Origin: an uncultured bacterium
GTDB lineage: Bacteria > Planctomycetota > J058
Assembly (NCBI GenBank): GCA_937911525.1
Contig: CALDQK010000927.1
Coordinates: 1-48,112 of the forward strand
DNA length: 48,112 nucleotides
Direction of reading: 5' to 3'
The notes under the pieces are model-generated. The model was not told the origin of the DNA. It saw nothing but the letters and a program-made list of their open reading frames with translations, and did no database searches. The position numbers and the translations under genes were made by a program. This document shows positions 828 to 48,112 of this stretch, one piece after another (the stretch's first letter is position 1; each line of letters begins with the position of its first letter).

Positions 828-829
828 TC

Positions 830-1522: not shown

Positions 1523-1530
1523 GAGCCGGC

Positions 1531-2619: not shown

Positions 2620-2638
2620 CGCCCAAGGAGCGTGAACC

Positions 2639-5497: not shown

Positions 5498-5498
5498 C

Positions 5499-7496: not shown

Positions 7497-7588
7497 TGGG
7501 CGCCTCCTGCGCTCCCTGGCGACAGCAGGACACTACCTCGACCTGGCGGACACCCCAAGGCCGATCCAGGGGCCCACAGGCGGCGCCT

Positions 7589-9312: not shown

Positions 9313-9481
9313 GGAGAGCAAGCGAGTCGTCGTGAAGGGCCTGAAAAAGGCGGAGAAGGAGTTCCAGAAGTATCTGCGCCTGCGGATCGGTGCAGAGAAG
9401 ACCGTGGCCCAGCTCGAGGAGGACCTAAAGGAGGCCCTGGCCGAGGTGGAGCGTCAGCTCGAGGAGGAGCGCCGTGGCTAA
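9305..9481 (+). CDS. small coiled-coil protein (58 aa), not in ORF track
   Basis: Hand translation gives MPEESKRVVVKGLKKAEKEFQKYLRLRIGAEKTVAQLEEDLKEALAEVERQLEEERRG followed by a stop. It overlaps the upstream gene by 8 nt and the downstream GTG start (9474) by 8 nt. GC3 is high except for AAA/AAG codons. Confidence 0.45.
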   Translation: MPEESKRVVVKGLKKAEKEFQKYLRLRIGAEKTVAQLEEDLKEALAEVERQLEEERRG

Positions 9482-10145
9482 GACGATCGTCCTGAACTTC
9501 GCCCTAAAGAAGCTGAAGGCGGCAGAAGAGGCCGCCAAGAAGATCCTGGTTTCGGTTCGCAAGAGCACCGACCTGAGCAAAGAGGAGCGGCGGGACCGGA
9601 GCAAGGCCGCGCGCGAGAGCCTCAAGGAGATCCGCGCACGGAGGCGCTTCGAGCAACGCCGGGCGAAGCTTCAAGGGCGCGCGAACGCACTCCGGGGCCG
9701 CGACCTCCTCGCCGCGAGCCGGGGGCGTTTCAGCGGGCTGTTCGGGACCGTCGGAGAGGCGCGCGAAAAGGGCGAGTCCTTCGCCAACGCGCTCTTCGGG
9801 GACGGCGAGATCTCCCAGAGCCTCCCTTCGTTGATCAGCGGCGTCGGGCAGTTCGTTCCCGGGCTCGGGCCCTTCATGACGCTCCTCGCTCCGCTGACCG
9901 AGAAGCTCCTCGGCCACCTCGAGGAGCGGCTGCAGCAGGAGCTGGCCAAGCAAGAGACCCGGCTGCTCGCCCGTCTTGAGGAGCAGCGTTTTCGCATGGA
10001 CTTCACCCGGCGCTTCAAAGAGGACCCGGCCTTCGCCCGGGAGCAGGCCCGCCAGGCGCTCGAACGCACCGTCGCCGAGGAGGCCAGGCTTGGGAAGCGG
10101 ATCCAGAAGACCACCGCCGACCTGGTCACCGACTTCGGGCTGTAG
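9474..10145 (+). CDS. short tape-measure-like protein (223 aa)
   Basis: The protein is highly helical and charged (KKLKAAEEAAKK, EERLQQELAKQETRLLARLEEQR). A central Gly/hydrophobic segment (LPSLISGVGQFVPGLGPFMTLLAPL) is present. It sits before the large distal proteins. The call is compositional and positional. Confidence 0.45.
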   Translation: MAKTIVLNFALKKLKAAEEAAKKILVSVRKSTDLSKEERRDRSKAARESLKEIRARRRFEQRRAKLQGRANALRGRDLLAASRGRFSGLFGTVGEAREKGESFANALFGDGEISQSLPSLISGVGQFVPGLGPFMTLLAPLTEKLLGHLEERLQQELAKQETRLLARLEEQRFRMDFTRRFKEDPAFAREQARQALERTVAEEARLGKRIQKTTADLVTDFGL

Positions 10146-10147
10146 CC

Positions 10148-16925: not shown

Positions 16926-21034
<4,109 letters not shown>

Positions 21035-21038
<4 letters not shown>

Positions 21039-23899: not shown

Positions 23900-23907
23900 G
23901 AAGACTC

Positions 23908-25284: not shown

Positions 25285-25398
25285 GGTGCGTTCTCCTGCA
25301 CGTGGAAGGACGGGCGAGACGTCTGCTCGAGCTCGGGACGGACGTCGTCCTGAGCGCGCAGACGCCGGGGGCGCCGGGCGCTGCCCGGCGTCAACCGC

Positions 25399-25824
25399 CT
25401 AGAGCAGGAAGACGCGGTGAAGTAGGTGCAGCCTGTGTTTGCCAGGCGGGGGTCGCGGCCAACACGCAGAAGTCTGCAATCGGCGGTCTTGGGGGCTCGG
25501 GACGGCGGGAGGAGCCTCGAAAAGGACGAGCGCGAGCTGCCCGCAGTACGGCTCGCCGGTCGCAGGCAGCTTGCTGCCCGCAGCGTCCCCGAGGTCGAGC
25601 TTCGGGCAGTCGGGGCAGTGGTCGGGGGACTGGGCGCGCTCGTTCCGGTCGTCGTCTGCCTGCATGGCGCAGCAACCGTGAGCGCGCGGCTGAGGAGCCT
25701 CCGCCTGGCTGCAGAACAGGCCGTGATCTCCGCCCTGGCAGGCGCAGAGGTCGAGCTGCCCGATTCCTCCCGGAACGAGCAGGGTGACGATCAGGAGGAC
25801 GCTCAGGAGTCGCGCGCCGATCAC
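25399..25824 (-). CDS. secreted Cys/His-rich small protein (putative)
   Basis: The GTG start overlaps the kinase stop (GTGA). A signal-peptide-like N-terminus (LLSVLLIVTLLVPGG) is followed by CAC, FC, HGCCAM and HCPDCP motifs. GC3 is high over most of the ORF. The C-terminal third is low-complexity, so the true end is uncertain. Confidence 0.45.
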   Translation of the reverse strand: MIGARLLSVLLIVTLLVPGGIGQLDLCACQGGDHGLFCSQAEAPQPRAHGCCAMQADDDRNERAQSPDHCPDCPKLDLGDAAGSKLPATGEPYCGQLALVLFEAPPAVPSPQDRRLQTSACWPRPPPGKHRLHLLHRVFLL

Positions 25825-27677
25825 GAGGTGGCCTCGCGATCGGCCGTCACTTGGGCGCGGGCCAGGCGAGACTCGTCCCGCGCGCGAGCGTACTGGCGCT
25901 GGCGCGCGCGGATGCGGATCTCCGAGATCGCGCTCACGGCGACGCGCGGGTAGCTCGCGAAGCGGGGCTCGTAGTCGAGCACAGCGTGGTCGGCGCGCGG
26001 CGCCGGTTCGGCAGGCGTGGGGTCCTGGGGAGGCTCTACCGCGGGGGCGGACTCGGCCTCAGCGGCAGGCCCCTCGTCAGGGACGAGCTCCCGGAGTCGC
26101 GCGCGCCACCACATGTGGGCCCGCTGCTGGGTCCACGGCTGCGCGACCGCGATCCGCGCCAAGCGCTCGTGCAGGTCATCCACCGTCTGCGGCCGCAGGC
26201 GCGGGGTCTTGGCCAGGCAGTTGATGATCAGCTCTTCCAGTTCGGGAGGGATCGCCTGCCGTGTCTTCGCGCTCGGGATCGGCGGTGGAGCATGGACGTG
26301 GTCGGCGATGATCCCGGCCGCGGTGGACTGCTCGAACACCAGGTGCCCGGTCAGCAGCCAGTAGGCGACGCAGCCGATCGCGTAGACGTCGGCGCGGGAG
26401 TCGACCTCCGCGGGGCTCTTGGCCAGCTCGGGGGCCATGAAGGCAGGCGTCCCCACGACGTAGTCCGCGTCGCTCACGCGGGGGTCCTGCTCGGCGGGCT
26501 TCATGCGCCGCACGAGGCCGAAGTCGAGGACCTTGACGAAGTCGACCTGGTTGCCGACGTGGCAAGCCATGAGGTTCGAGGGCTTGATGTCGCGGTGGAC
26601 GAGCCCCGCGGCGTGCGCCTCGGACAGCGACTCGCACACCTGCCGCAGGAGGTAGATCGCGCGGGCAGGGGAGAGCGGGCCGAAGCGATCGACCAGCTCC
26701 TCCAGGTCGATCCCTTCGAGGAGCTCCATGGCGTAGTAGAGGGTGCCGTCGTCGGTGACCCCGTAGTCGTAGAGGCTGACGGTGTGCGGTGAGGTCAGGG
26801 CCGCGATCGTCTGGGCCTCGCGCTCGAAGCGCGCCAGGACCTCGCTCCGATCCTGGAGCGGCGGCGTCCCGTGGGTGCCGGTCGTCGGCAGGTGGACGAG
26901 CTTGACGGCCGCGGGCCGTGCCAACAGGGCGTGCTCCGCGCGCCACACCTCGCCCATGCCGCCGCGCCCCAGGAGCTCGACGAGGCGGTAGCTGCCGAGC
27001 TGGCGAACGGTGTCCCGGGCGGTCGTGGCGGCCGAGCCGAGGTCGAACACGAGCCACGCCGGGACCACCGCGAGGCCAGCGCAGACGTAGTAGGGGAGGA
27101 ACGTCTCGGCCAACACGGGGAGCCGCGGCAGGGCCTGGCCTTCCGCGAGGCTCCACACGAAGAAGACCGCGGGCGCCGTGGTCGCGCAGAGGGTCGAGAC
27201 GACGAGGCTGCGCAGCGGCCGGCTGGGAATCAGCAGGGGGAAGAGGAGGATCCACACGGCCAGCCACGACAGCTTGACGCCCACGCCCTGGAGGAGCATG
27301 TCGCCGGAGAAGGCGCAGACCGAGAGCACGAGCGCGCCGAGGAGCTGGTAGGCGAGCCCGACCTTGAGGGTCGTCCGCGCCGGCAGCAGCCGGCGCCAGG
27401 CGACGACCGCCATGCCCAGCGAGAGCAAGAACAAGACGGTCTGGGCGGCCAGGAAGTGGGTGAGGTGGTGGGGGGCCTCCCACCCGAGGGGTCCGTAGAG
27501 CACGAACGCGCTCAGGACGAGCGCGGCGACGACGCCGGCGAAGACGGCGCTCACCAGCGCCAGCCGGCGGTTCGACTGCTCGAGGAAGCGGCTGTCGAGG
27601 AGCGCGGACGTCGCAGAGCCCGGAGACGACTTAGCGTCCCTGTCTTCGACTCGCTCGCAGACGACCCCGACTCTCAT
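25821..27677 (-). CDS. membrane Ser/Thr protein kinase with N-terminal multi-TM domain
   Basis: About 6-7 hydrophobic helices span aa 40-230. A Hanks-type kinase follows, with GRGGMGEVW, AAVKL, HRDIKPSNLM, DFGLV and GTPAFMAPE. The C-terminal tail is Pro/Glu-rich. Confidence 0.9.
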   Translation of the reverse strand: MRVGVVCERVEDRDAKSSPGSATSALLDSRFLEQSNRRLALVSAVFAGVVAALVLSAFVLYGPLGWEAPHHLTHFLAAQTVLFLLSLGMAVVAWRRLLPARTTLKVGLAYQLLGALVLSVCAFSGDMLLQGVGVKLSWLAVWILLFPLLIPSRPLRSLVVSTLCATTAPAVFFVWSLAEGQALPRLPVLAETFLPYYVCAGLAVVPAWLVFDLGSAATTARDTVRQLGSYRLVELLGRGGMGEVWRAEHALLARPAAVKLVHLPTTGTHGTPPLQDRSEVLARFEREAQTIAALTSPHTVSLYDYGVTDDGTLYYAMELLEGIDLEELVDRFGPLSPARAIYLLRQVCESLSEAHAAGLVHRDIKPSNLMACHVGNQVDFVKVLDFGLVRRMKPAEQDPRVSDADYVVGTPAFMAPELAKSPAEVDSRADVYAIGCVAYWLLTGHLVFEQSTAAGIIADHVHAPPPIPSAKTRQAIPPELEELIINCLAKTPRLRPQTVDDLHERLARIAVAQPWTQQRAHMWWRARLRELVPDEGPAAEAESAPAVEPPQDPTPAEPAPRADHAVLDYEPRFASYPRVAVSAISEIRIRARQRQYARARDESRLARAQVTADREATS

Positions 27678-27689
27678 GGCCGACCGACG

Positions 27690-27705
27690 TGCAACTCATG
27701 TGCCG
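27690..27705 (-). promoter_or_regulatory. sigma54 (-24/-12) promoter for the kinase-cus operon
   Basis: The minus strand reads cGGCAC-atgag-TTGCA with exact GG-N10-GC spacing. The -12 element ends 12 nt upstream of the kinase ATG (27677), and there is no SD between them. Confidence 0.65.
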
Positions 27706-27786
27706 ACCACCGCTCCCCAGCGCTTGTCGCCTTGTCGGGGGTTCTGCCTCCAGAGTGGGCAGGGCATCTCCAACTCCTGGAGTTCA

Positions 27787-27808
27787 GGCATTTCAGATCT
27801 GAAATGCC
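27787..27808. promoter_or_regulatory. perfect 22-bp palindrome GGCATTTCAGATCTGAAATGCC, candidate enhancer-binding-protein site
   Basis: Read directly. It is centred between divergent -24/-12 elements, about 80-95 bp from each. The same core recurs at 40514-40527, with degenerate copies near 40471, 44105 and 44254. Confidence 0.6.
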
Positions 27809-27900: not shown

Positions 27901-27916
27901 CGGATCGAGACTTGCA
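27901..27916 (+). promoter_or_regulatory. possible weak sigma54 promoter for the channel gene
   Basis: cGGATC-gagac-TTGCA has correct GG-N10-GC spacing and a perfect -12 box but a poor -24 box. The predicted transcription start falls just before the GGAGG RBS of the 27940 gene. Confidence 0.3.
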
Positions 27917-27939: not shown

Positions 27940-28671
27940 ATGGCTGAGCGAGTGATCGAAGCACGCCCCGAGGGGGAGGAGCGCTGCACCGTCCTGCTGG
28001 TCGCCCTGCTGGGGCTGTTCCTCCTATGGCCGCTCTTGGGCTTGGGTCACGTAGGCTCCGCGCTGCTCGACCTGTTCGTGTCCGCGGCGCTGTTGCTGAC
28101 CGTCCGCGCCCTGCGAGGCCCAGGGCGCGCCGTGTTCCGCGCTGCCCTCGCGCTGTCCGTCCTGGCGATCGTCACGGCTGCAGGGAGCCACCTGCTCGGG
28201 GTGGCTTCGCTCCTGCCGCTGGGCCATGTGCTGGGGCTGCTGTTCTTCCTGCTCACGGGCGGCACCCTGCTCAAGCGCGTCCTGGAGCCGGGCCCCGTCA
28301 CGGCCAACCGCTTGGAGGCCGCGATCTGCGGCTACTTGCTCATCGGGTTGGGGTGGGCGCTCGTGTTCTCCCTCATGGAGCACTTCCAGCCCGGGGCCTT
28401 TCACGACCCAGCCGGAGGATCCCCGGAGAGCCACGCCGTGCTGGCGGGCTTCCCGCACTTGATCTACTACAGCTTCACGACCCTCACGACGCTGGGGTTC
28501 GGCGACGTGGTCCCGCGGAGCCCGTTCGCCAGGTCCCTCAGCACCCTGGAGGCGGTGGTGGGTCAGCTCTACCTCGCGCTGCTGGTCGCCAGGCTGGTGG
28601 GCTTGCACATCGCCCGGATCGCGGCCAGCGAGCAGACCGAGTGCCCGGCCCACCGCGAACCTGCTCAGTGA
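27940..28671 (+). CDS. K+-channel-like pore protein (Ion_trans_2 type)
   Basis: ATG at 27940 with GGAGG 5 nt upstream. Multiple TM helices are present, with a selectivity-filter-like TTLGFGD after a pore helix (IYYSFTTLTTLGFGDVVP). Confidence 0.75.
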   Translation: MAERVIEARPEGEERCTVLLVALLGLFLLWPLLGLGHVGSALLDLFVSAALLLTVRALRGPGRAVFRAALALSVLAIVTAAGSHLLGVASLLPLGHVLGLLFFLLTGGTLLKRVLEPGPVTANRLEAAICGYLLIGLGWALVFSLMEHFQPGAFHDPAGGSPESHAVLAGFPHLIYYSFTTLTTLGFGDVVPRSPFARSLSTLEAVVGQLYLALLVARLVGLHIARIAASEQTECPAHREPAQ

Positions 28672-33013: not shown

Positions 33014-33304
33014 TCACTGAGCGGCGCACTGCGGGCACTCCTGCACGATCAGCCGGCACTTCGAGCAGTAGTGCACAGTCCCAGGCGGGGTGATCTCGTT
33101 GTTGTAGTCGACCTCGGTCTCGCACTTCGGGCACACGTGGCGATCGACGGTCAGAACCTCGAACACCGTGGTGCGGGTCTGCTCGCTGCAGCTCGGACAC
33201 ACCGGGCTCGCCTCCTCCTTCACTACCTGCCCCGGCGTCGCGCAACCTGGCAGACCCAGGCCGATCGCGAGCGCGGCCGCCAGCGTGAACGTCCTCCAGC
33301 TCAT
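33014..33304 (-). CDS. small lipoprotein with four CxxC pairs (8 Cys)
   Basis: The N-terminus is MSWRTFTLAAALAIGLGLPGC (lipobox), followed by CPSC, CPKC, CSKC and CPQC. A GAGGAG RBS is present. It is a paralogue of the 43686-43991 product. Confidence 0.7.
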   Translation of the reverse strand: MSWRTFTLAAALAIGLGLPGCATPGQVVKEEASPVCPSCSEQTRTTVFEVLTVDRHVCPKCETEVDYNNEITPPGTVHYCSKCRLIVQECPQCAAQ

Positions 33305-33314: not shown

Positions 33315-34157
33315 TCACGGCGCCATGGCCGCGATGTGGCGCTGCGAGAGCACCTCGAGCATTTCCTGCGTGATCCCCTCCTGGCGAGCCTTGCGGAGCA
33401 CGCGCTCCTGCTCGGCGATCCGCCGCTCCGCGGACTCGTGGGCGCGGGTCATGCGCGCCAGGCGAACGCTGGCTTCTGCCCGCGCGCCTTCGCAGGCGGC
33501 GTGCAGGATGCGCGCGTGAGCGAGGAGCGACCGCGCGCGGGTGTGCGCGACGTCGGCGGGAGCGAACTGAGCCAGGGGTCGGGCGAGGGCTGCCCGCGCC
33601 TCCGCCAGCCCCGCGAGGTCGCTCCCGACGTCCCAGGAGGTCTCGACCTGGGGGCTCCCGCCGCGGGAGACCCCGGTGGCGGAGACGATGCACAGGCGCG
33701 TCCTGAGCCCCGCGTCCCCGACCTCAGCCTCGACGCGCTCGGCGAGCTCGACGGCGGCGGCCATGCTGGACGGCGCTGGCTCCTCCAGGCGGGGGACGTC
33801 GTCCGGGAGCAGGTCCAGCAGCCGCGCCCCACACGCCGCGAACAGGACGACCTGCTGCTCCTCGACCACCTGGAGCGCGGCGTCGGCCACCAAGCGGTTG
33901 AGACGTCCGCAGAGCCCGAGGTCCGTCCCCAGCGCGAGGACCGCGCAGGTGGCGGGGGGACGACGCCGGTGGCGGTCTTCCCAGCGCTGGACGCGCTCGT
34001 GGAACGCCTGGCTCCAGGCGAGCTGACGGCGCGTGTGGGCGACCTGCGCGTTCCAACGCAGGACCTGTGCCGCCGCCAGCGACCGGGTGGCGTGGGCGAC
34101 GTCGCGGAAGCTCCGCCACGCCTTGAGTCGCTCCTCCAGCGCCCGGACGGCCTTCAC
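33315..34157 (-). CDS. atpG: N-ATPase gamma subunit
   Basis: The 280-aa ORF is the last gene of an atpDCQRBEFAG-ordered cluster. Its GTG start overlaps the alpha subunit stop. A gamma-like helical N-terminus and C-terminus are present. Confidence 0.75.
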   Translation of the reverse strand: MKAVRALEERLKAWRSFRDVAHATRSLAAAQVLRWNAQVAHTRRQLAWSQAFHERVQRWEDRHRRRPPATCAVLALGTDLGLCGRLNRLVADAALQVVEEQQVVLFAACGARLLDLLPDDVPRLEEPAPSSMAAAVELAERVEAEVGDAGLRTRLCIVSATGVSRGGSPQVETSWDVGSDLAGLAEARAALARPLAQFAPADVAHTRARSLLAHARILHAACEGARAEASVRLARMTRAHESAERRIAEQERVLRKARQEGITQEMLEVLSQRHIAAMAP

Positions 34158-35689
34158 GTGGTCCTCCCCGCTGGCTGCGGCGCCAGCGCTGTCTCGGCAG
34201 CCTCCTTCAGGGCGTCGAGCTGGGCCTGGGGCGGGAGGTGCCCTTGCTCCAGCTCGCTCCAGGCGGCGGGATCGCGCTCACGCATGGCCGCCAGCGCCCG
34301 ATCCAGCGCGTCGTCCAGCTCGTCGACGGGGATCTGCGCGACAGCGTCGGTGTCGAGCGCGAGCACCTGCGCCACGGACTCGGCCCACCCCAAGGCTTCG
34401 CCTCGCTCCTGGCGCAACGCGCGGCGCACGCGACGCCCCCACTCGATCAGCTGCTGCGCCTCGCTCTCCAGGCGAGAGCCGAAGCGGGCGAAGACCTCGA
34501 ACTCGAGGAACTGGGCGTATTGGTTCTTCAGCGGCCCCGCCACGCGCTTGAGCGCCTGGGGCTGGGCCTTGCCGCCGACGCGCGAGACCGAGAGGGACAC
34601 GTCCACGGCCGGGATCTGGTCGGCAGCGGCCAGCGCCGTGTCGAGCCGGATCTGCCCGTCGGTGATCGACACGATGTTCGTGGGGACGAAGGCGGAGAGA
34701 TCCCCGGCCTGGGTCTCGACGATCGGGAGCGCGGTCAGGGAGCCCCCGCCGCTGGCGCGTCCGAGCTGGGTCGCCCGCTCCAGCAGGCGGGCGTGGGCGA
34801 AGAACACGTCCGCCGGGAAGGCCTCGCGACCTACGGGACGGCCGAGGAGGAGGGCCAGCGAGCGGTGGACGTGGGCGTGGGTCGTCAGGTCGTCGTAGAC
34901 GATCAGCACGTCGCGCCCGGCGCGCATCAGGTCCTCGGCCATGGCGGTGGCGCTGTAGGGGGCCAGGTGGATCAGCCCGAGCGGGTCGTCGGCGTCCGAG
35001 GTGACGACGAATCCGCGCTCCAGCACGCCAGCCGCGCGCAACCACTCGACGTTGGCGGCGACCTCGGCGCCGCGGCGGCCAACGGCGACGTAGATCGCGA
35101 CCACGTCGGGGTCCTGCGCGGCGAGGATGTCCAGGCAGAGCTCCGTCTTGCCGGTCGAGCGGTCTCCGACGATGAGCTGTCGCTGGCCCCGGCCCACGGG
35201 GATCATGGTGTCGAGGACGAACACGCCGGTCCGCAGCGGCCGCGAGACCGGCTCCCGCTCCTCGAGCGCGATCGGCGGCCCGTCCACCAGCACCCGGCGC
35301 CGGGCCCGCAGCGGCCCCTGGCCATCGCGTGGTTGGCCCAGCGGGTCGACGACCCGGCCGATCAGCTCGGGTCCCGCCGGGACGTCGAGCACGCGCCCCA
35401 GCCGGCGTACGGGGTCGCCGGCCTCGACCTGCTCGGGGTCACCCATGAGCACGAGGCGCATGACGTCGCGGGTGATCGCGTCCACCCGGGCCGCCACGCC
35501 GTTCACGTCCAACAGCTCTCCGGCGAGGGGCTCGTCCAGCCCGGTCGCCAGGGCGACCCCGTCACCCGCCCGGCTCACCCGCCCCAAGCGCACCAGGTCG
35601 ACGCGGGGGCGGGCGCGGTCCAGCCCGCGGCGAAGGCGCTCCAGCGCCTCCGCGCCTGACTGCTGGTGCTCCTGCTCGCGCTCGGTCAC
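34154..35689 (-). CDS. atpA: N-ATPase alpha subunit
   Basis: Walker A GDRSTGKT, DDLTTHA and typical alpha-subunit length and layout. Confidence 0.9.
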   Translation of the reverse strand: MTEREQEHQQSGAEALERLRRGLDRARPRVDLVRLGRVSRAGDGVALATGLDEPLAGELLDVNGVAARVDAITRDVMRLVLMGDPEQVEAGDPVRRLGRVLDVPAGPELIGRVVDPLGQPRDGQGPLRARRRVLVDGPPIALEEREPVSRPLRTGVFVLDTMIPVGRGQRQLIVGDRSTGKTELCLDILAAQDPDVVAIYVAVGRRGAEVAANVEWLRAAGVLERGFVVTSDADDPLGLIHLAPYSATAMAEDLMRAGRDVLIVYDDLTTHAHVHRSLALLLGRPVGREAFPADVFFAHARLLERATQLGRASGGGSLTALPIVETQAGDLSAFVPTNIVSITDGQIRLDTALAAADQIPAVDVSLSVSRVGGKAQPQALKRVAGPLKNQYAQFLEFEVFARFGSRLESEAQQLIEWGRRVRRALRQERGEALGWAESVAQVLALDTDAVAQIPVDELDDALDRALAAMRERDPAAWSELEQGHLPPQAQLDALKEAAETALAPQPAGRTT

Positions 35690-36414
35690 GCGGGCTCCTC
35701 GGCCGCGTTGGCCTCGTCCAGCTCGGTGAGCCAGCGCTTCAAGGCGGCCCCGGCGCTGGCGTCGACCTCCAGGTCGCGGAAGGCGAAGCGGACGCCGCCG
35801 ACCAGCTCCGGGTCGGCGTCGGTCTGGAGCGCGCAGCGGTCGTGGAGCACCTTGCCGACGACCTGCCGCACGTCGTCAGGGTCGGCGTCCGGGCTGGTCC
35901 AGAGGCGGACGGTGGCGTCCTGCGGCAGCGCCCCCGCCTCCAGGAGACGCCGCGCGCCCTCTCGGGCGTAGGCCGTGGCGATGCTCGTCTCCGACATGCC
36001 CGCCACGACCTTGGCGGCGCCCTGGACGGAGAGGGCCACCACCTGATCGCGCAGACTCTCCAGCGAGCGGAGGCGGGCGAGCTCGAGGTCCGTCTGGTGG
36101 CGTTCCCGCGCCTGGTCCATGTCGCGTCGAGCGGCGGCGACGATGTGCTCGGCCTTCTCCTCGGCCTCCCGGCGGACCTCCGCTCGCAGCCGCTCCCCCT
36201 CCTGCTCGGCGCCCGCGATCTTGGCCCGGTACTCGTCGCGCAGCGCGGCCGCCTCGGCCTGCTGCGCGGCGAGCTCGGCGTTGCGCTGCTCGATCTCGGA
36301 CCGGCGCGCGGCGAGGGCCTCGCGGACGGGTCGGAACAGGAAGCGGCCGAGCAGGACCATCAACACCACGAAGTTGAGGAGCTCGAACAGGACCAGGCGC
36401 CAGTCGATGGACAC
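35686..36414 (-). CDS. atpF: N-ATPase b subunit with delta-like C-terminal extension
   Basis: An N-terminal TM helix is followed by a long charged helix and an extra ~90-aa C-terminal domain. There is no separate atpH in the cluster. Confidence 0.75.
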   Translation of the reverse strand: MSIDWRLVLFELLNFVVLMVLLGRFLFRPVREALAARRSEIEQRNAELAAQQAEAAALRDEYRAKIAGAEQEGERLRAEVRREAEEKAEHIVAAARRDMDQARERHQTDLELARLRSLESLRDQVVALSVQGAAKVVAGMSETSIATAYAREGARRLLEAGALPQDATVRLWTSPDADPDDVRQVVGKVLHDRCALQTDADPELVGGVRFAFRDLEVDASAGAALKRWLTELDEANAAEEPA

Positions 36415-36423
36415 GTCGTCGAC

Positions 36424-36678
36424 CTAGGGGAGGAGGGGGTTGGCGAACAGGAGGATCAGCGCGATCACCAGGCAGTAGATCGCGGTCGACTCGACCATGG
36501 CCATGCCGACGAACAGCGTGCGGGTCAGGGTCGAGGCCGACTCTGGTTGCCGCGCGATGGCGTCCAGCGCGGCTGCCAGGCCGCGCCCTTCGCCGAGGGC
36601 AGAGCCGATCGACCCGAGCGCGACCGTGAACCCGGCCGTGGCGATGGAGATGAACGTGATCAGGGCTTGGTCGCTCAT
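36424..36678 (-). CDS. atpE: N-ATPase c subunit, Na+-binding type
   Basis: The true start is ATG 36678 (MSDQALITF...), giving 84 aa. ARQPE in helix 1 and [20 protein letters not shown] in helix 2 match the Q/E/S/T/Y Na+ site of the Ilyobacter tartaricus c ring. Confidence 0.85.
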   Translation of the reverse strand: [84 protein letters not shown]

Positions 36679-37355
36679 GCGGCCTCCTGGGGGGTGCGAT
36701 CGCGCCGCTCGACTTGAACGGCGGCCGCGATGTAGACGGCGGCGAGGATCCCGAAGATGTAGGCCTGGATCAGGCCAGTGAGCAGACCCAGCACGAGCAG
36801 CGGGACGGGCACCAGCACGCCCGCGACCAGCAGCACGATCGCCCCGATCATTTGTCCGCTCATGACGTTCCCGAACAGGCGGACGCAGAGCGCGAGGGTG
36901 CGCGTCAGCTCGCCGATGATGTTCAGGGGCAGCAGGATCGGGCTCGGCTTGGCGTAGCGGCGCAGGTACTCCCACAGGCCGTGTCGGCGGATCCCGAAGT
37001 AGGGGACGGCGACGAACACCACCAGGGCCAGGGCGACCGCGGTCGAGAGCTCGGCCGTGGGTGGCCGCAGGAAGGGCACCACCGAGAGGCAGTTGCTGAC
37101 GGCGATGAACAGCATCAGGGTCCCGATCAGCGACACGTAGGGCGTGGGGTCTTCCTCCACGACCTCCGAGACCGTCTGCTCGATCCAACCCGCGAACAGC
37201 TCGATCCCCGTCTGCCAGAGCGTGAGCCCCGAGGTCTGCAGCCGCCTGGATGCAAGGGCGCACAGGCCGACCAGGAGCACCGTGAGCCCGAGCGTGATGA
37301 ACACGACGTCGGGGACGTCCCAGCCGAGAATGGGGATCGTGAACTGCGGGTTCAC
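36675..37355 (-). CDS. atpB: N-ATPase a subunit
   Basis: The GTG at 37355 overlaps the atpR stop, with GGAGG upstream. A conserved LCVRLFGNVMSG (stator Arg) motif is present. Confidence 0.85.
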   Translation of the reverse strand: MNPQFTIPILGWDVPDVVFITLGLTVLLVGLCALASRRLQTSGLTLWQTGIELFAGWIEQTVSEVVEEDPTPYVSLIGTLMLFIAVSNCLSVVPFLRPPTAELSTAVALALVVFVAVPYFGIRRHGLWEYLRRYAKPSPILLPLNIIGELTRTLALCVRLFGNVMSGQMIGAIVLLVAGVLVPVPLLVLGLLTGLIQAYIFGILAAVYIAAAVQVERRDRTPQEAA

Positions 37356-37642
37356 GAGGTGACCTCCGCGGTCGGGTGGCCCTGTGACAGCCGCCAGCGC
37401 GCAGCGAGCCCGCCCAGGACGAAGCCCACCAGCCCGCCGCAGAGCGGGAGGAGGCCCCCGAAGCTCGAGGCGAAGAGCAGGCCCGCAGGCAGGGCGACCC
37501 GGAGGGGCGCGCCGAGGAGCAGGGACGCCGCGCTCTGCCGCTCGACCGCGCCTTCGACCCCCTTGAGGAGGAGCCGGGCGTGGACGGCCGCCGAGAGCGC
37601 GCCGGCCAGGAACCACAGCGAGACGATCAGCAGCGCGTTCAT
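37352..37642 (-). CDS. atpR: N-ATPase-specific small membrane protein AtpR
   Basis: The 96-aa protein has three hydrophobic helices with an intramembrane Arg. Its position between atpQ and atpB matches described N-ATPase operons. Confidence 0.65.
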   Translation of the reverse strand: MNALLIVSLWFLAGALSAAVHARLLLKGVEGAVERQSAASLLLGAPLRVALPAGLLFASSFGGLLPLCGGLVGFVLGGLAARWRLSQGHPTAEVTS

Positions 37643-38024
37643 GTCCCGTTCTCCTCAGCCTCCTGGATCGTCCTCCAGAAGAAGTAGCCGCCCATGCCCA
37701 GGCCCAGGAAGAGGAGGCCGATGGCCCAGGTGATCCCCGTGTCGAGGCGCATGTCGATCAGGTGACCCAGGAATGCCCCCAGGACCGGCGGCAGGGCGAT
37801 CAGCCAGCCGAGCGTCCCCACCTGGGCGACGGTCCGCCACAGGCTGCCCGCGGGCTCTCGTGAGGCCCTCAGGCGCTCGGTCTTCTGCCGCTCGATCCGA
37901 TCGATCAGCACGCGGTCGGTGGGATGGCGCGAGCGGGGGAGCCCCTCGTCCTCGGGGGCCTCAGGCTCCCCCTGGGGCGGCGTCGCCGGCTGCTGCGCGT
38001 CTTCCGGGCGAGGCGGGGACTCGG

Positions 38025-38028
<4 letters not shown>
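37639..38028 (-). CDS. atpQ: N-ATPase AtpQ (AtpI-like) membrane protein
   Basis: The GTG at 38028 overlaps the epsilon stop (GTGA). A Pro/Glu-rich N-terminus is followed by two TM helices (VGTLGWLIALPPVLGAFLG; ITWAIGLLFLGLGMGGYFFW). The ORF-track N-terminal extension lies inside atpC. The start is uncertain. Confidence 0.6.
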
Positions 38029-40376
<2,348 letters not shown>

Positions 40377-40401
40377 GCTTCCTCCAGTGCGCTGAACCGT
40401 G

Positions 40402-40417
40402 TGCACATTTCAGGCCA
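40402..40417 (-). promoter_or_regulatory. possible sigma54 promoter for the DUF2231/N-ATPase operon
   Basis: The minus strand reads TGGCCT-gaaat-GTGCA with exact GG-N10-GC spacing. The predicted transcription start is about 15 nt upstream of the 40376 ATG, leaving the GGAGG RBS in the leader. Confidence 0.4.
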
Positions 40418-40470
40418 CAGTCAGCAACGTGGCGCCGCCGTCCGCAGCGAACCCGCGAACCTGCGCTGCG

Positions 40471-40527
40471 TTTCAGGTCTGCAAGTTCCCCGTCCTCTGG
40501 GAAGCAGGTCCTGTTTCAGATCTGAAA
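40471..40527. promoter_or_regulatory. two copies of the TTTCAGATCTGAAA motif (40471-40484 degenerate, 40514-40527 perfect)
   Basis: TTTCAGGTCTGCAA matches 12 of 14 positions and TTTCAGATCTGAAA matches 14 of 14. The latter extends to GTTTCAGATCTGAAATGCC, matching the 27787 palindrome. Both lie between divergent -24/-12 elements. Confidence 0.55.
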
Positions 40528-40567
40528 TGCCACCCCCACACTCCCTTGTTAGAAGGTCGAGGTGCGA

Positions 40568-40582
40568 GGCACTCCAATTGCA
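40568..40582 (+). promoter_or_regulatory. sigma54 (-24/-12) promoter for the two-component operon
   Basis: GGCAC-tccaa-TTGCA is a consensus match with GG-N10-GC spacing. The -12 box ends 16 nt upstream of the sensor kinase ATG (40599). Confidence 0.7.
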
Positions 40583-40598
40583 ATTACCGTCGAGAGCG

Positions 40599-42137
40599 AT
40601 GACTGAGGACACGACGAACGGGGCGAGAGGTTGGCGGCTGGGTCTGCGCCACCGAATCCTCGTGCTCGTCTTCCTGGTCCCAGCCTCGGTCCTGGTGGTC
40701 GGCCTCCCGCTCCTGTTCGTCTCCCAGCACCGCAGGGCAGAGGCGGAGTTCAAGGACCGGCTTCGGTCTGAGGCAGACGTGCTGGCGCTGGCATTGGCGG
40801 ATCCTTGCGAGCGGGAGTGCCTCCATGAAGTGGAGCCTCCTGTTCAGCAGCTGCTGCAGAACGAGCCTGCGCTCATCTCCGTCGAGATCTTCGACCCCAA
40901 GAGCGGGACTCTGCTGGGCGCGTGGGGAGCGACGGGGCCAAAGCCAAGCGCGGCACAGCTCGGCAGTCCTGCGGGCAAGGTCTGGATCGAGGAGGAAGGA
41001 GAGGCGAACAGTGCGCTCCACGCTTCGGGGCACGTGTTCGCTGCCACCACGCCCCTCGCGACGAAGCGCTGGAAGGGCGAGGAACACCCCGTCCTGCGCC
41101 TGCGCGGCAACTCCCGCGCCTACAACGAGCGCGTGGTCCACATGCTGCTCCTGGCGTTGATACCGGGTGGCGTAGCAGGGGTCGGCGGGCTGCTCTTGGC
41201 GTTCTGGCTCAACCGGCGGCTGCGGAGCGCCGTGGCTTCGCTGCAGGATGCGACAGCGCGCATTGCGCGAGGAGAACTCACCGAGCGTGTGAACGTCCGC
41301 ACGGGAGACGAACTCGAGGACCTCGGTGAGGCCGTCAATCGGATGGCAACGGAGTTGGCGGAGCAGCGCGCCCGCTTAGACCGGAACGCGGAGGTCCTGG
41401 AAGAGAAGCTCAGCGCGCGCAGCCTCGAGCTCGAGAAGGCCAGGACCATTGCGGTCAACCAAGAGCGGATCGCGGCGATGGGAGTCCTTGCCGCGGGCGT
41501 CGCTCACGAGATCGGAAACCCACTCACCGCGATCTCTGCTGTCGTTCAGGGCATGCGCCGCCGAGAAGAGGGCGGCGGCAAGGTCGAGGTCCTGGCCGAG
41601 AACCTGGACCGAATTCGGCAGATCGTCCGCAGCTTGGTCGACTACGCCCGGCCCCCAGCCAACGACTGGCGTTCCTTGTCACTGAACGACCTGCTGCGCC
41701 GGACCTTGTCGCTGGTGAGCATGGACCCGCGCGCCAAGGAGGTCGACATGTCGACCGAGCTCGACCCGGAACTCCCCCGCGTCCGCTCCGTCGAGGACAA
41801 GGTCCAGCAGGTGTTCCTCAACCTGCTCCTGAACGCTTTGGACGCGCTGCCCGAGGGCAAGGGGCGGGTTCAGGTGACGAGCCGGAGCGAAGGCGATGAG
41901 GTCTGTGTACTCGTCGACGACAGCGGCCCCGGCGTGCCAGCCGAGCTGAAGGAGCGCATCTTCGAGGCCTTCTTCACGACCCGCGTGGAGCACGGCGGCA
42001 CGGGGCTGGGGCTCGCCGTGAGCGCGTCCCTGGCCGACGAGCTGGGCGGGCGCCTGGAGGTCGGAGACAGCCCGCTTGGCGGGGCACGGTTCACGCTGTG
42101 TCTACCCGTCAGCGCTTCGGAGGAGCGTGCCGTATGA
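40599..42137 (+). CDS. sensor histidine kinase (periplasmic domain-HAMP-HisKA-HATPase)
   Basis: The start was chosen at ATG 40599 (MTEDTTNG...). Two TM helices flank a ~150-aa periplasmic domain containing CERECLHE. Motifs are a HAMP region, an H-box VAHEIGNPL, an N-box LNLLLNALDA and a G-box GTGLGL. Confidence 0.85.
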   Translation: MTEDTTNGARGWRLGLRHRILVLVFLVPASVLVVGLPLLFVSQHRRAEAEFKDRLRSEADVLALALADPCERECLHEVEPPVQQLLQNEPALISVEIFDPKSGTLLGAWGATGPKPSAAQLGSPAGKVWIEEEGEANSALHASGHVFAATTPLATKRWKGEEHPVLRLRGNSRAYNERVVHMLLLALIPGGVAGVGGLLLAFWLNRRLRSAVASLQDATARIARGELTERVNVRTGDELEDLGEAVNRMATELAEQRARLDRNAEVLEEKLSARSLELEKARTIAVNQERIAAMGVLAAGVAHEIGNPLTAISAVVQGMRRREEGGGKVEVLAENLDRIRQIVRSLVDYARPPANDWRSLSLNDLLRRTLSLVSMDPRAKEVDMSTELDPELPRVRSVEDKVQQVFLNLLLNALDALPEGKGRVQVTSRSEGDEVCVLVDDSGPGVPAELKERIFEAFFTTRVEHGGTGLGLAVSASLADELGGRLEVGDSPLGGARFTLCLPVSASEERAV

Positions 42138-43483
42138 ACGTCAAAGGCGCGGTCCTGGTCGTGGACGACGAGCGCGCAATCCGCGAGGAGATCGGCGAAG
42201 CGCTGGAGGAAGCCGGCCATGAAGTCCGGCTGGCGCGAAACGCAGAGCAGGCGCTGGCCCTCCTGCGCGAGGCGCCAGCAGACGTCCTCCTCTCTGACTT
42301 GCGCATGCCGGGTATGGACGGTGTGGCGCTCCTCAAGGAAGTGCGGCGTGAGCGGCCGGAAGTGTCCGTCTTGCTCATGACCGCTTTCGCCTCGGTGGAG
42401 ACAGCGGTCGATGCGCTCAAGGCGGGTGCGTCGGACTACCTGCTCAAGCCGCTGGTGATCGACGAGCTGTTGACCAAGGTCGCGCACCTGCTGACCTTCC
42501 AGCACCTCTCGCGCGAGAACCGACGGCTCAAGGAGGAACTGTTGCGGAGCGGCGGCGAGTGCCACGTGGGCGCGAGCCCTGCCATGACCGAGGTTGCCCG
42601 GACCGTGGCCAGGGTGGCGCCGACCCGCTCCACCGTGCTGATCACGGGCGAGAGCGGCACGGGCAAGGACGTGGTCGCGAAGACCCTCCACCGCCTGAGC
42701 CAGTTGAGCGACAAGCCCTACGTGGTGGTCGATCTGGGCGCGATCCCCGAGGCGCTGTTGGAGTCCCTGTTGTTCGGGAGCGTGAAGGGTGCGTTCACCG
42801 GTGCGGCCGGCCGCAAGGGCCTGTTCCAGTCCGCGGACGGAGGGACGTTGTTCCTGGACGAAATCGGAAACCTGTCCCTGGAGGCGCAGGCGAAGCTGCT
42901 GAGGGCGATCGAGAGCGGCGAGGTGCTGCCCGTGGGTGGAACCCAGCCCGTGCGGGCCAAGTTCCGCCTGCTCGCGGCGACCAATCGTGACCTGGAAAAG
43001 GCCGTGGAGGCTGGGGAGTTTCGCCAGGACCTCTACTACCGCCTGAACGTGGTCCAGCTTCAGCTCCCGCCGCTTCGCGACCGCAGGGAGGACCTGCCGG
43101 GGCTGGCCCAGTGCCTGCTCACGAAGCTCAACGCCAGCTTGCGGACCAACTACTCGGAGGTCGACCCGGAGGCTTTGCTGCAGCTCATGGGCCACGACTG
43201 GCCCGGCAACGTCCGAGAGCTGCAGAACGTCCTGGAGCGGGCCATGGTCCTGGGAGACGGCATGACGATCCGCCCCGAGGACCTCCCCCTGGGCAAGGAG
43301 GAACCCGACGCGGTCGACATGGACCTCCGCCGCGCGGTCCGCCGTTTCGAACGAGGACACATTCAGCGCGCGCTAATCGCGGAAGGGTGGAGCCGCAAAG
43401 ACGCGGCCCGCAGCTTGGGTATCAGTACGACCTCGCTCTGGCGGCGGATGACCGAGTTGGGAATCGAGGAGCCAAGCGCCTAA
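42134..43483 (+). CDS. sigma54-dependent response regulator (NtrC family)
   Basis: The ATG at 42134 overlaps the kinase stop (ATGA). Motifs are REC (LLSDLRMPGMDG), AAA+ Walker A GESGTGKD, the GAFTGA loop and a C-terminal Fis-type HTH (AARSLGISTTSLWRRM). Confidence 0.9.
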   Translation: MNVKGAVLVVDDERAIREEIGEALEEAGHEVRLARNAEQALALLREAPADVLLSDLRMPGMDGVALLKEVRRERPEVSVLLMTAFASVETAVDALKAGASDYLLKPLVIDELLTKVAHLLTFQHLSRENRRLKEELLRSGGECHVGASPAMTEVARTVARVAPTRSTVLITGESGTGKDVVAKTLHRLSQLSDKPYVVVDLGAIPEALLESLLFGSVKGAFTGAAGRKGLFQSADGGTLFLDEIGNLSLEAQAKLLRAIESGEVLPVGGTQPVRAKFRLLAATNRDLEKAVEAGEFRQDLYYRLNVVQLQLPPLRDRREDLPGLAQCLLTKLNASLRTNYSEVDPEALLQLMGHDWPGNVRELQNVLERAMVLGDGMTIRPEDLPLGKEEPDAVDMDLRRAVRRFERGHIQRALIAEGWSRKDAARSLGISTTSLWRRMTELGIEEPSA

Positions 43484-43685: not shown

Positions 43686-43991
43686 TCACTCCTTCTGGCA
43701 CAACCGGCACGGCTCGACGATCGCGTCGCACTTGTCGCAGTAGTGGACCGTCTCGTCGAACTCCGTCCCTGCGTCCATTGTCTTGCAACGAGGGCAGAAG
43801 TGTCTCTTGTAGGTGAGGCCTTCGAAGACGAATGTCCGCGTTTCGGTTCTGCACTCCGGACAGACCTGACTCGTGTCCTCAGAGACGAGCTCCCCAGGCG
43901 TTTGGCAGCCGGGTGCTGCCGAGATGAGCAGCCCTATGACGATCGGCAGCAACCAGCTCGTAGATCGTCGTTTCATTCGTCTCCACTTCAT
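43686..43991 (-). CDS. small lipoprotein with four CxxC pairs, paralogue of 33014-33304
   Basis: The start was chosen at ATG 43991 (MKWRRMKRRSTSWLLPIVIGLLISAAPGC); an alternative ATG is at 43976. Motifs are CPEC, CPRC, CDKC and CRLC. It aligns with the other lipoprotein through TPG..V.E..S.VCP.C...TRT.VFE.LT..RH.CP.C...TVHYC.KC..IV..C..C. Confidence 0.65.
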   Translation of the reverse strand: MKWRRMKRRSTSWLLPIVIGLLISAAPGCQTPGELVSEDTSQVCPECRTETRTFVFEGLTYKRHFCPRCKTMDAGTEFDETVHYCDKCDAIVEPCRLCQKE

Positions 43992-44104
43992 ACGAGTGCC
44001 TTGCCTACGATTCGGGTCCGGGCCAGGGTGAGAGGGACGCACGCCTCGGCCCAAACTCCGAAGGGCGGTTCTGAGGCGAAGGCCACGAGTGTAACGGGTA
44101 GGCC

Positions 44105-44118
44105 TTTCACGTCTGAAA
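44105..44118. promoter_or_regulatory. degenerate copy of the TTTCAGATCTGAAA motif (TTTCACGTCTGAAA)
   Basis: It matches 12 of 14 positions. It lies in the divergent intergenic region between the CxxC lipoprotein gene and the triple-repeat protein gene. Confidence 0.35.
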
Positions 44119-44253: not shown

Positions 44254-44272
44254 TTCAGATTTCACATCTGAA
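44254..44272. promoter_or_regulatory. split inverted repeat TTCAGAT-ttcac-ATCTGAA related to the palindrome family
   Basis: The 7-bp arms are perfect and use the same TTCAGA/TCTGAA half-sites, but with a spacer. It lies about 45 bp upstream of a -24/-12-like element. Confidence 0.4.
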
Positions 44273-44316
44273 AGGCACTTGCTCTCCCCCCAAACGGAGC
44301 AACGGCATCTCTGAAG

Positions 44317-44332
44317 TGGTCCCGAAGCTGCT
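44317..44332 (+). promoter_or_regulatory. possible sigma54 promoter for the triple-repeat periplasmic protein gene
   Basis: TGGTCC-cgaag-CTGCT has GG-N10-GC spacing. The predicted transcription start is about 24 nt upstream of ATG 44367, which has a CAGGAG RBS. Confidence 0.35.
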
Positions 44333-44366: not shown

Positions 44367-45101
44367 ATGCGCATTCAGCCACTTCCCTTCCTCCTCCTTC
44401 TGACCCTGTTCCTTCTGCCTGCCAGTGCCTTGGCTCAAGGCACGAAGGACACGGCGGCAGACCCATACACGCTGACGACCTGCCCGATCTCAGGCAAGAA
44501 GCTGGGCAGCATGGGGGATCCCGTCGTCAAGTCCTACGACGGACGAGAGGTTCGCTTCTGCTGCGGCGGCTGCGTTGGGACCTTCGAGAAAGACAAGGCC
44601 AGTCAATTCAAGAAGATCAATGACAAGCTGATCGCTGACCAGAAGGCCCACTACCCGATCCCTGTGTGCGTCGTTTCCAAGGAGTCTCTCATGGAGAACG
44701 GCGAAGACGCTGGCATCGATGTCGTCGTCGGGAATCGCCTGGTTCGCCTCTGCTGTGAGGGCTGCACGAAGAAGCTGCTCAAGAACCCCAAGAAGTACTT
44801 GGCCCGGCTGGATAAGGCGATCGTGAAGGTCCATCGCAGCAAGTACCCACTCGACACCTGTGTCGTGGGCGGCGGCAAGCTCGGCTCAATGGGCAAGCCC
44901 GTCGAGACCGTGATTGGGAACCGCCTGGTTCGTCTCTGCTGCAAGGGTTGCTTGCCGAAGCTTAAGGCCAACCCGCACAAGTATCTGCCGAAGCTTGACG
45001 CGGCGTGGAAGCACAAGGCGGGCGCGAAGAGCCCCCACAAGGGGCACGAAGGCCAAGGCCACAACAAGGGCGGTCACGACCACAGCAAGCACAAGCACTA
45101 G
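44367..45101 (+). CDS. secreted triple-repeat Cys-rich protein with His-rich tail (putative periplasmic metal binder, TRASH/YHS-like repeats)
   Basis: The start was chosen at ATG 44367 (signal peptide MRIQPLPFLLLLTLFLLPASALA). Three ~65-aa repeats each have (Y)P..(T)C...(G)KLGSMG..V....GR.VR.CC.GC...(L/F).K.P.KY. The C-terminal tail is HKGHEGQGHNKGGHDHSKHKH. Confidence 0.75.
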   Translation: MRIQPLPFLLLLTLFLLPASALAQGTKDTAADPYTLTTCPISGKKLGSMGDPVVKSYDGREVRFCCGGCVGTFEKDKASQFKKINDKLIADQKAHYPIPVCVVSKESLMENGEDAGIDVVVGNRLVRLCCEGCTKKLLKNPKKYLARLDKAIVKVHRSKYPLDTCVVGGGKLGSMGKPVETVIGNRLVRLCCKGCLPKLKANPHKYLPKLDAAWKHKAGAKSPHKGHEGQGHNKGGHDHSKHKH

Positions 45102-45202: not shown

Positions 45203-45763
45203 TCAAGGACGGTGACCCCGGGGCTTCTTGCACGAGCAGTCCACGCAGCCATGCTCGGCGCACATACGGCAGAAGCCGAGGACCTCCTTGCGAAGGGCCT
45301 TTCGCGCCCGATGCACGCGCACCCCGGCGTTGTTCGCGGTGATCCCAACCTCCTGCGCGTAGTCTGCGAGCGACTTGCCCGCCAAGTCGACCTGCTCGAG
45401 GGCCATGGAGTAGTCGGGCTTCAGAGTGTCGACCAGGGCGCGGACGCACTGGCAGACCTGCTCGACGTGGCTCGGATTGGGCTCCGAGGCCTGCTCCAAC
45501 TGCTGGGCATATTCGGTGAGGCGGCGATCGGCGACCGCGGCGCGGCGGCTGCGGTCGATGATCGCGTTGCGCAGGACTCGATAGAACCAGGCGACGGCCG
45601 CCTCCTCGTCGCGGATCGAGTCGGCGCGCTCCACGGCTTTGGCCAGCGACTCCTGGAGGATGTCCTCAGCCAGGTCGCGGTCTCCCACCCGCCGCTCCAG
45701 GAACCCCAGGAACGCGCGTCGCTCCGCGAGCAGGCGGGCTGGGATACCCCCGTCGTCGGTCAC
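45203..45763 (-). CDS. ECF sigma factor with C-terminal Cys-rich extension (CorE-like)
   Basis: Region 2 (DLAEDILQESLAKA...WFYRVLRNAIID) and region 4 (ALEQVDLAGKSLADYAQEVGITANNAGVRVHRARKALR) are present. A linker CQC and a C-terminal FCRMCAEHGCVDCSCKK follow. There is no adjacent anti-sigma gene. Confidence 0.8.
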   Translation of the reverse strand: MTDDGGIPARLLAERRAFLGFLERRVGDRDLAEDILQESLAKAVERADSIRDEEAAVAWFYRVLRNAIIDRSRRAAVADRRLTEYAQQLEQASEPNPSHVEQVCQCVRALVDTLKPDYSMALEQVDLAGKSLADYAQEVGITANNAGVRVHRARKALRKEVLGFCRMCAEHGCVDCSCKKPRGHRP

Positions 45764-45863
45764 GGGCGACTCAACTCATGGCTAGGCAAGGGCATGGCGA
45801 ATTCCTGGCCCAAGTGTAAAGCCCCCAGAGGCGCTGCGTCTGCCCGGGTGAGAGGAGCAGACC

Positions 45864-48112
<2,249 letters not shown>

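Follow-up and report, generated by a model that had tools for sequence, protein, structure and literature searches.

In Escherichia coli, ZraR binds the spacer between the divergent zraP gene and its own zraSR operon, activating both and thus autoregulating its own synthesis (PMC8249747, PMC7657598). The CorSR system of Myxococcus xanthus combines a periplasm-sensing HAMP kinase with a sigma-54 activator, and acts through several putative sigma-54 promoters to control copper-handling genes (the CorSR/curA regulon, with a P1B ATPase and an oxidase), alongside the Cys-rich ECF sigma factor CorE (PMC3707914). For Planctomycetota, bulk predictions have placed sigma-54 promoters 5' of genes for ZraR-like regulators (PMC12316311).

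Here, we analyzed a window of 48,112 nucleotides (i.e., the whole stretch of DNA under study), in which a 222-bp gap separates a DUF2231 gene, followed by N-ATPase genes, from the divergent genes of a sensor kinase and an NtrC-class activator. The closest analogue of this gap is the bidirectional sigma-54 region between zraP and zraSR (HydHG) of E. coli. Our comparisons of sequence indicate that the gap is probably a bidirectional sigma-54 control region, with shared activator sites and autoregulation of the two-component operon.

RESULTS

Sequence elements of the 222-bp gap

The gap extends from the ATG of the DUF2231 gene (40376, minus strand) to the ATG of the kinase gene (40599, plus strand). 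A first-pass annotation had placed four elements in it, and both the elements and the length of the gap were reproduced in the sequence at the same positions. The features are as follows:

40380–40385, minus strand: Shine-Dalgarno sequence GGAGGA, preceding the DUF2231 ATG
40402–40417, minus strand: sigma-54-type -24/-12 element TGGCCTgaaatGTGCA, upstream of the DUF2231 and N-ATPase operon
40471–40484: site 2, candidate enhancer, a 12/14 copy of the palindrome, TTTCAGGTCTGCAA, between the two predicted promoters
40514–40527: site 1, candidate enhancer, perfect palindrome TTTCAGATCTGAAA, between the two predicted promoters
40567–40582, plus strand: sigma-54-type -24/-12 element aGGCACtccaaTTGCA, upstream of the kinase/activator operon

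In both -24/-12 elements, the GG and GC are exactly 10 nt apart. The plus-strand element has one mismatch to TGGCAC-N5-TTGCA, for which just two such matches exist in the 48 kb, and it scores 10/12 against the extended consensus TGGCACG-N4-TTGCW, as does only one other element of the window (27690–27705). Both of these best-scoring elements (40567 and 27690) lie in palindrome-bearing intergenic regions, shortly upstream of a start codon. The minus-strand element deviates from the consensus (GGCCT/GTGCA); it has three mismatches and scores 9/12, and with 24 equally good matches in the window it is not significant alone. Support for this element comes from its conservation in two close relatives, namely L001 (the closest genome, a metagenome-assembled genome annotated as Planctomycetota, with a kinase 91% identical to that of the window) and L094 (a 94–96% identical sibling of the window with the same gap), as well as from a near-identical element 5' of a DUF2231 homologue in contig L095. 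It also resembles TGGCTCgaaatGTGCT, the promoter of the TRASH gene in L081.

A scan of the gap with the E. coli consensus, which may miss promoters at 70% G+C, returned no sigma-70-like promoter, and neither a terminator nor an Rfam family was found in the gap. Given these scans, we rejected a structured RNA, a terminator, or a sigma-70 promoter as explanations of the region. Inspection by eye of the stretch between site 1 and the plus-strand promoter for an IHF site (WATCAR-N4-TTR) gave no convincing match, and rpoN is absent from the 48-kb window.

The palindrome recurs upstream of sigma-54-type elements

Searching the window for TTTCA-N4-TGAAA with up to three mismatches yielded five matches, against 0.24 expected, and none of 100 shuffled sequences reached five. 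The five palindromes are spread over three intergenic regions, and each is upstream of GG-N10-GC (-24/-12) elements. Outside the 222-bp gap, the palindromes, elements, and associated genes are:

16926–25284, minus strand: Cus-type RND operon, downstream of the Ser/Thr kinase gene
25821–27677, minus strand: Ser/Thr kinase
27690–27705, minus strand: sigma-54-type element CGGCACatgagTTGCA, ending 12 nt before the Ser/Thr kinase ATG
27791–27804: palindrome, part of the perfect 22-bp GGCATTTCAGATCTGAAATGCC, between the Ser/Thr kinase and channel-like genes
27901–27916, plus strand: sigma-54-type element cGGATCgagacTTGCA, upstream of the ion-channel-like gene
27940–28671, plus strand: ion-channel-like protein
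43686–43976, minus strand: zinc-ribbon lipoprotein
44038–44053, minus strand: sigma-54-type element, upstream of the zinc-ribbon lipoprotein gene
44105–44118: palindrome TTTCACGTCTGAAA, centered 59.5 bp from the GG of the minus-strand element
44260–44273: palindrome TTTCACATCTGAAA, centered 51.5 bp from the GG of TGGTCCcgaagCTGCT
44317–44332, plus strand: sigma-54-type element TGGTCCcgaagCTGCT, upstream of the TRASH/YHS gene
44367–45101, plus strand: secreted protein, three TRASH/YHS repeats plus His-rich tail

We considered whether the palindromes act as RNA or DNA structures (hairpins, terminators, or a dispersed repeat) rather than as protein sites. The copy at 27786–27808 is a perfect 22-bp palindrome for which a hairpin is possible, but the arm sequence TTTCA/TGAAA is itself conserved, not mere complementarity, the flanks are non-palindromic at the other copies, the sites are upstream of predicted transcription starts, and they show neither a terminator-like T tract nor an Rfam match. 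A structural role is thus very improbable, and we treat the palindromes as candidate protein-binding sites. A further hit, TTTCAGTTCTGGAA, which lies inside the channel gene of several loci, was rejected as a regulatory site and treated as coding-sequence conservation.

The layout of the 27791 locus, with the palindrome between the Ser/Thr kinase and channel-like genes, is shared with L084. On the minus strand of this locus (16926–27705), genes for the Ser/Thr kinase, a 141-aa unknown protein, an OEP, an HMBD-CusB-like protein, and an AcrB-family pump are co-oriented 3' of the element at 27690–27705, as they are in L084; these genes may constitute a single ~10.7-kb operon of the regulon.

Other parts of the window showed the following. 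The segment 43484–45200, which includes two palindromes along with the genes of the zinc-ribbon lipoprotein and the TRASH/YHS protein, has a G+C content of 0.60–0.65 versus ~0.70, and is missing in L001, where the activator gene directly precedes the genes for an ECF sigma factor and a P1B ATPase; it has the appearance of a regulon module that was inserted or deleted. Next to it in the window, a Cys-rich ECF sigma factor gene (45203–45763, minus strand; tail CRMCAEHGCVDCSCKK) is divergent from a gene for a P1B ATPase with YHS and HMBD domains (45852–48110, plus strand), and the gap between these two genes has no palindrome. We take this sigma factor to resemble the CorE-type metal-sensing sigma factors of Myxococcus. 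The far end of the window (1–16000) encodes a homologue of phage major capsid protein E (1531–2619) followed by several large open reading frames lacking a Pfam match, and looks like a prophage.

The adjacent sensor kinase and NtrC-class activator

The two-component operon consists of:

40599–42137, plus strand: sensor histidine kinase (TM, PDC/sCache-like periplasmic domain, TM, HAMP, HisKA, HATPase)
42134–43483, plus strand: NtrC-class response regulator/enhancer-binding protein, the start of which overlaps the kinase stop (ATGA)

The activator has the architecture REC, sigma-54 AAA+, and Fis-type HTH (Pfam PF00072, PF00158, PF25601, PF02954), and it carries the hallmarks of its class: a PF00158 match with an E value of 4.7e-64, a GAFTGA loop, the Walker A sequence GESGTGK, and HTH_8. 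Its recognition helix, GISTTSLWRR, is invariant among the six activator orthologues with a complete C terminus, which fits the conservation of the palindromic DNA motif. In L001, a TAG codon (12817–12819) takes the place of the TTG (Leu428) directly before this helix in the window, with the downstream frame intact; a sequencing error of the metagenome-assembled genome or a nonsense mutation of recent origin would account for it.

With respect to named systems, the activator scored below the NCBIfam cut-offs for AtoC (425 bits versus 714), NtrC (403 versus 559), and ZraR (369 versus 760), and the kinase below that for ZraS (177 versus 479), although ZraS ranked second among the matches of the kinase and ZraR third among those of the activator. 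Equivalog identity with ZraSR, AtoSC, or NtrBC was rejected for this reason. An orthologue of Myxococcus CorSR had also been considered, prompted by the base composition, the presence of a Ser/Thr kinase, and an ECF sigma factor like CorE; this was set aside, since the closest genome is annotated as Planctomycetota and the operon organization differs, and CorSR serves as an analogue only.

The start codon of the kinase is fixed by its conserved N terminus. Three motifs of its periplasmic domain (40716–41153), DPCxRxCLxE, EEG, and H..GH, do not vary in any of the orthologues. An AlphaFold model of the sensor (pLDDT 82) predicts a PDC/sCache-like fold with the CxxxC within a long N-terminal helix. 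Identification of the signal from this fold was rejected, because the model, though confident, matches generic PDC/sCache domains only.

Conservation of the palindromes and promoter elements at orthologous loci

With the sensor half of the kinase as query, only seven database proteins were retrieved, six of which are orthologues with 56–69% identity in the sensor region. Among genome matches, all except L001 cover the generic kinase core only, mostly at ~25–35% identity. All comparators are metagenomic contigs, and orthologous sites are statistically non-independent. In six diverged lineages with the orthologous pair, the palindrome is intergenic with a GG-N10-GC element downstream, and precedes the same gene families, i.e., those of the kinase, Ser/Thr kinase, ion-channel-like protein, TRASH/YHS protein, DUF2231 protein, and Cus-type RND efflux. 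The contigs L081 to L090 share as conserved neighbors a channel-like gene, in many cases immediately 5' of the kinase gene, a TRASH/YHS gene with small unknown genes, and genes for a CBS protein, the Ser/Thr kinase, and a P1B ATPase; a Cus-type RND operon is among the conserved neighbors in L084 and L085. On the control side, exact palindromes numbered 3 in 80 unrelated kinase loci, and 78 of 80 loci with DUF2231 relatives (372 kb) had none, the exceptions being L094 and L095.

No palindrome was found within 230 bp of the kinase promoter in L084. In L081, an IS21-type element (IstB; 1400–1772) with short direct repeats lies just 5' of the channel-like gene; the sigma-54-like TGGAGTcgtccTTGCG is retained there, and the palindrome found at the corresponding position of L087 and L089 is missing.

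Comparison of the gap with that of L001 revealed a footprint-like pattern. From the DUF2231 side to the kinase side, identity was 94% for the minus-strand element, 53% for the 53-bp spacer, 100% for site 2, 66% between the sites, 93% for site 1, 88% for the 39-bp spacer B, 94% for the plus-strand element, and 100% from the -12 element to the ATG. L094 agrees with this footprint: site 2 is 100% identical in both relatives, and site 1 is kept in both but for one central base.

These comparisons support all of the proposals of the first-pass annotation on function, namely two divergent sigma-54-type promoters, palindromes that are sites of the adjacent enhancer-binding protein, and autoregulation of the two-component operon. 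The activator shows the NtrC-class hallmarks, palindromes and GG-N10-GC elements recur 5' of shared gene families at six diverged orthologous loci, and the four elements of the gap stand out by footprint-like conservation in close relatives.

An alternative is that the palindromes are operators of another regulator (a repressor or a stress regulator), that the GG-N10-GC elements are fortuitous, and that transcription starts at unrecognized sigma-70 or ECF-type promoters. The promoter types of this lineage are uncharacterized, so that the E. coli-based sigma-70 scan is weak negative evidence; moreover, an ECF sigma factor gene is nearby (45203–45763), and the minus-strand element is no better than the 24 chance matches in the window. 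Against this, GG/GC spacing and position relative to start codons are kept across lineages despite a change of GGCAC versus GGTCC, and the palindrome accompanies orthologues of this activator, the recognition helix of which is invariant, and is rare otherwise. We consider such an alternative unlikely, and favor the adjacent activator as the protein that would bind the palindromes.

Geometry of the candidate enhancers and predicted short leaders

Distances were measured between the center of a palindrome and the first G of the GG. They are 47.5 bp (plus-strand element) and 104.5 bp (minus-strand element) for site 1, and 61.5 bp (minus-strand element) and 90.5 bp (plus-strand element) for site 2. 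The two sites are 43 bp apart, i.e., about four helical turns. The proximity of site 1 to the plus-strand promoter, initially noted as closer than for classical upstream activating sequences, is real and typical across the regulon: palindrome-GG distances are 48.5–62.5 bp at most orthologous promoters, with 70–105 bp at the Ser/Thr kinase and channel loci. Several regulon promoters have one detectable site each, 48–62 bp from the GG; as one site is enough at those promoters, each of the two in the gap may mainly serve the nearer promoter. Eighteen palindrome-GG distances (from the window, L001, L081 to L089, and L095) fall within one half of a helical turn, with a Rayleigh R of 0.61 at 10.5 bp and 0.74 at 11 bp, the values being non-independent and the promoters hand-chosen. 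This phasing is only suggestive of a face-of-helix constraint on short-range activation.

Between the end of the -12 element and the ATG there are 13–16 nt at the histidine kinase gene of four lineages and 11–12 nt at the Ser/Thr kinase gene of five loci, in each case with no Shine-Dalgarno sequence. The stretches between the -12 element and the kinase ATG are:

Window, 40583–40598 and 27678–27689
L081, 8464–8475
L084, 9931–9943
L085, 9477–9489
L087, 8122–8134

In L084, L085, and L087, the GG-N10-GC element ends 13 nt before the kinase ATG. In the window, the predicted start of the plus-strand promoter is at about 40593, 6 nt before the ATG; so short a leader, lacking a Shine-Dalgarno sequence, would be unusual and counts against this promoter. 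Because the -12 elements end 11–16 nt before the ATG, near-leaderless sigma-54 transcripts (2–6 nt) are predicted for both kinases; a literature search on leaderless sigma-54 transcripts turned up nothing specific. The minus-strand promoter, with its predicted start near 40391, has a predicted leader of ~14 nt that includes GGAGGA; at the DUF2231, TRASH, and channel genes, the distance from promoter to ATG is long enough for a Shine-Dalgarno sequence.

The DUF2231 and N-ATPase operon

The genes on the minus-strand side of the gap are:

39852–40376, minus strand: DUF2231 membrane protein (Pfam PF09990), first gene of the operon
About 33315–39850, minus strand: N-ATPase genes for beta, epsilon, AtpQ, AtpR-like (96 aa), a, c, b, alpha, and gamma
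33014–33304, minus strand: zinc-ribbon lipoprotein (96 aa), terminal gene of the N-ATPase operon

The N-ATPase genes are in the order atpD-C-Q-R-B-E-F-A-G, with no delta subunit gene. The c subunit contains GSALGEG and MVESTAIY, i.e., the Na+ ligands (ESTxxY) plus a second membrane Glu. The "alternate F1F0 ATPase" models of NCBIfam were the top match for beta and b and the second or third for a and c, all with scores under the cut-off (583 versus 752, 226 versus 302, 114 versus 131, and 83 versus 225). According to the gene calls on sister contigs, L091 among them, atpD begins 19 nt past the DUF2231 stop; this spacing indicates that the DUF2231 and N-ATPase genes form one operon. The terminal 96-aa protein is a paralogue, with 46% identity, of the zinc-ribbon lipoprotein at 43686–43976 that is predicted to be palindrome controlled, and homologues adjoin the TRASH gene in both L084 and L088.

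Linkage of an N-ATPase to this two-component system is confined to one lineage (the window, L001, L094, and L091 to L093), and the orthologue contigs L081 to L090 have no N-ATPase. The N-ATPase was therefore rejected as a conserved partner of the system, given also that in L095 the DUF2231 gene is followed by an OEP gene. In L095, which is from the same metagenome as L083 and whose DUF2231 protein is 65% identical to that of the window, a P1B ATPase gene is followed by palindrome TTTCAGGACTGAAA (3877–3890), the element CGGCCTtgcatGTGCG (3964–3979), the DUF2231 gene (4001), and the OEP gene (4535); the palindrome is 81.5 bp upstream of CGGCCTtgcatGTGCG. An OEP (outer-membrane efflux) gene usually comes first in an RND operon. 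Such an operon is divergent from the kinase gene in L085, with a palindrome between them, which is the layout of the window with the RND operon replacing that of the N-ATPase. The order in L095, where palindrome and element precede the DUF2231 gene and then the OEP gene, indicates that the DUF2231 promoter module is ancestral to the regulon. Judging from these arrangements, the N-ATPase operon was apparently captured by the regulon, replacing an efflux operon behind the same promoter module.

The restricted linkage and the weak consensus fit of the minus-strand element would also be expected if only the kinase/activator promoter depended on the activator and sigma-54, with the DUF2231 and N-ATPase genes transcribed independently and the minus-strand element and site 2 non-functional there. 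However, these two elements are 94% and 100% conserved in L001 versus 53% across the 53 bp between them, a homologous element and palindrome precede the DUF2231 gene in the distant L095, and the 61.5 bp between site 2 and the GG fits the 58.5–62.5-bp class of other regulon promoters. Control of only one side of the gap is accordingly quite unlikely in our estimation, and activation of both divergent promoters remains the preferred reading.

DISCUSSION

Proposed mechanism

The sequences themselves show the motifs, a recurrence beyond chance, and the conservation and spacing of these motifs. Binding by the adjacent activator, sigma-54 dependence, the transcription starts, and the type of signal are inferred, and can be combined into the following model. 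The membrane kinase (40599–42137) would sense a periplasmic signal and phosphorylate the NtrC-class activator (42134–43483), dimers of which would occupy the two TTTCA-N4-TGAAA palindromes and assemble an active AAA+ ring. This ring would then remodel sigma-54 RNA polymerase pre-bound at the two outward-facing -24/-12 elements. The minus-strand promoter would drive the DUF2231 gene, the nine-gene N-ATPase operon, and the small zinc-ribbon lipoprotein gene, and the plus-strand promoter would drive the kinase/activator operon, resulting in positive autoregulation from a probably nearly leaderless mRNA. The same activator is predicted to control four more promoters at the two other loci of the window, those of the Ser/Thr kinase, channel-like, TRASH/YHS, and zinc-ribbon lipoprotein genes, and the Cus-type RND efflux operon may be controlled along with the Ser/Thr kinase gene upstream of it.

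We propose heavy-metal or envelope-ion stress as the signal, on the basis of the predicted functions of regulon genes (TRASH/YHS proteins, HMBD-CusB RND efflux, and P1B ATPase) and of the invariant CxxxC and His residues of the sensor. A bolder combination of these ideas, which we put forward tentatively and judge to be somewhat doubtful as a whole, is that the N-ATPase operon is a genuine output of metal or envelope stress via a captured module that heads a Cus-type RND operon elsewhere, with both kinases essentially leaderless and the enhancers short range and phased. If so, N-ATPases would play a role in metal or ion-stress defense.

The analysis defines, from sequence, a motif, a promoter set, and a core regulon for an uncharacterized two-component system whose known occurrence is restricted to uncultured bacteria of marine and sediment origin. 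The analysis provides a testable regulatory link for the N-ATPase, the physiological role and regulation of which are poorly understood, and for which our literature search found no description of sigma-54 or two-component control. It also offers a natural case of apparent operon capture by a pre-existing promoter module, and predicts leaderless sigma-54 transcripts together with unusually short, phased enhancer-promoter spacing.

Comparison with known systems

Classical upstream activating sequences lie at about 80–150 bp. As at the sites of NtrC, NifA, and PspF, inverted repeats are found upstream of -24/-12 elements, with two sites on the same helical face and an AAA+ GAFTGA activator. In contrast to those systems, the nearest site here is centered ~72 bp before the predicted start (~72–87 bp at most regulon promoters), no IHF-like site was recognized, and several promoters have a single detectable site.

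The N-ATPase operon resembles the described atpDCQRBEFAG operons (Dibrova et al. 2010, PMC2881411) in its gene order, the absence of delta, AtpQ- and AtpR-like proteins, and the Na+ ligands plus extra Glu of the c subunit. It differs from them in having a co-transcribed DUF2231 gene first, a zinc-ribbon lipoprotein gene last, and a predicted sigma-54 activator-dependent promoter. CorSR is encoded within a nine-gene co-directional operon for which no palindromic enhancer has been described, whereas the genes here form a divergent pair with palindromes.

The ZraSR system is the nearest parallel, in that a target gene and the operon of the regulator itself have a shared enhancer between their promoters, a likeness that here holds at the level of sequence. 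ZraSR responds to metal and envelope stress, and a signal of this kind is what we deduce for the present system. The two are nevertheless non-orthologous, with the periplasmic sensor known from only seven database proteins; the divergent target here is a DUF2231 and N-ATPase operon rather than a ZraP-like periplasmic chaperone; and the motif, TTTCA-N4-TGAAA, is newly inferred, with a putative regulon of at least six promoters in the window.
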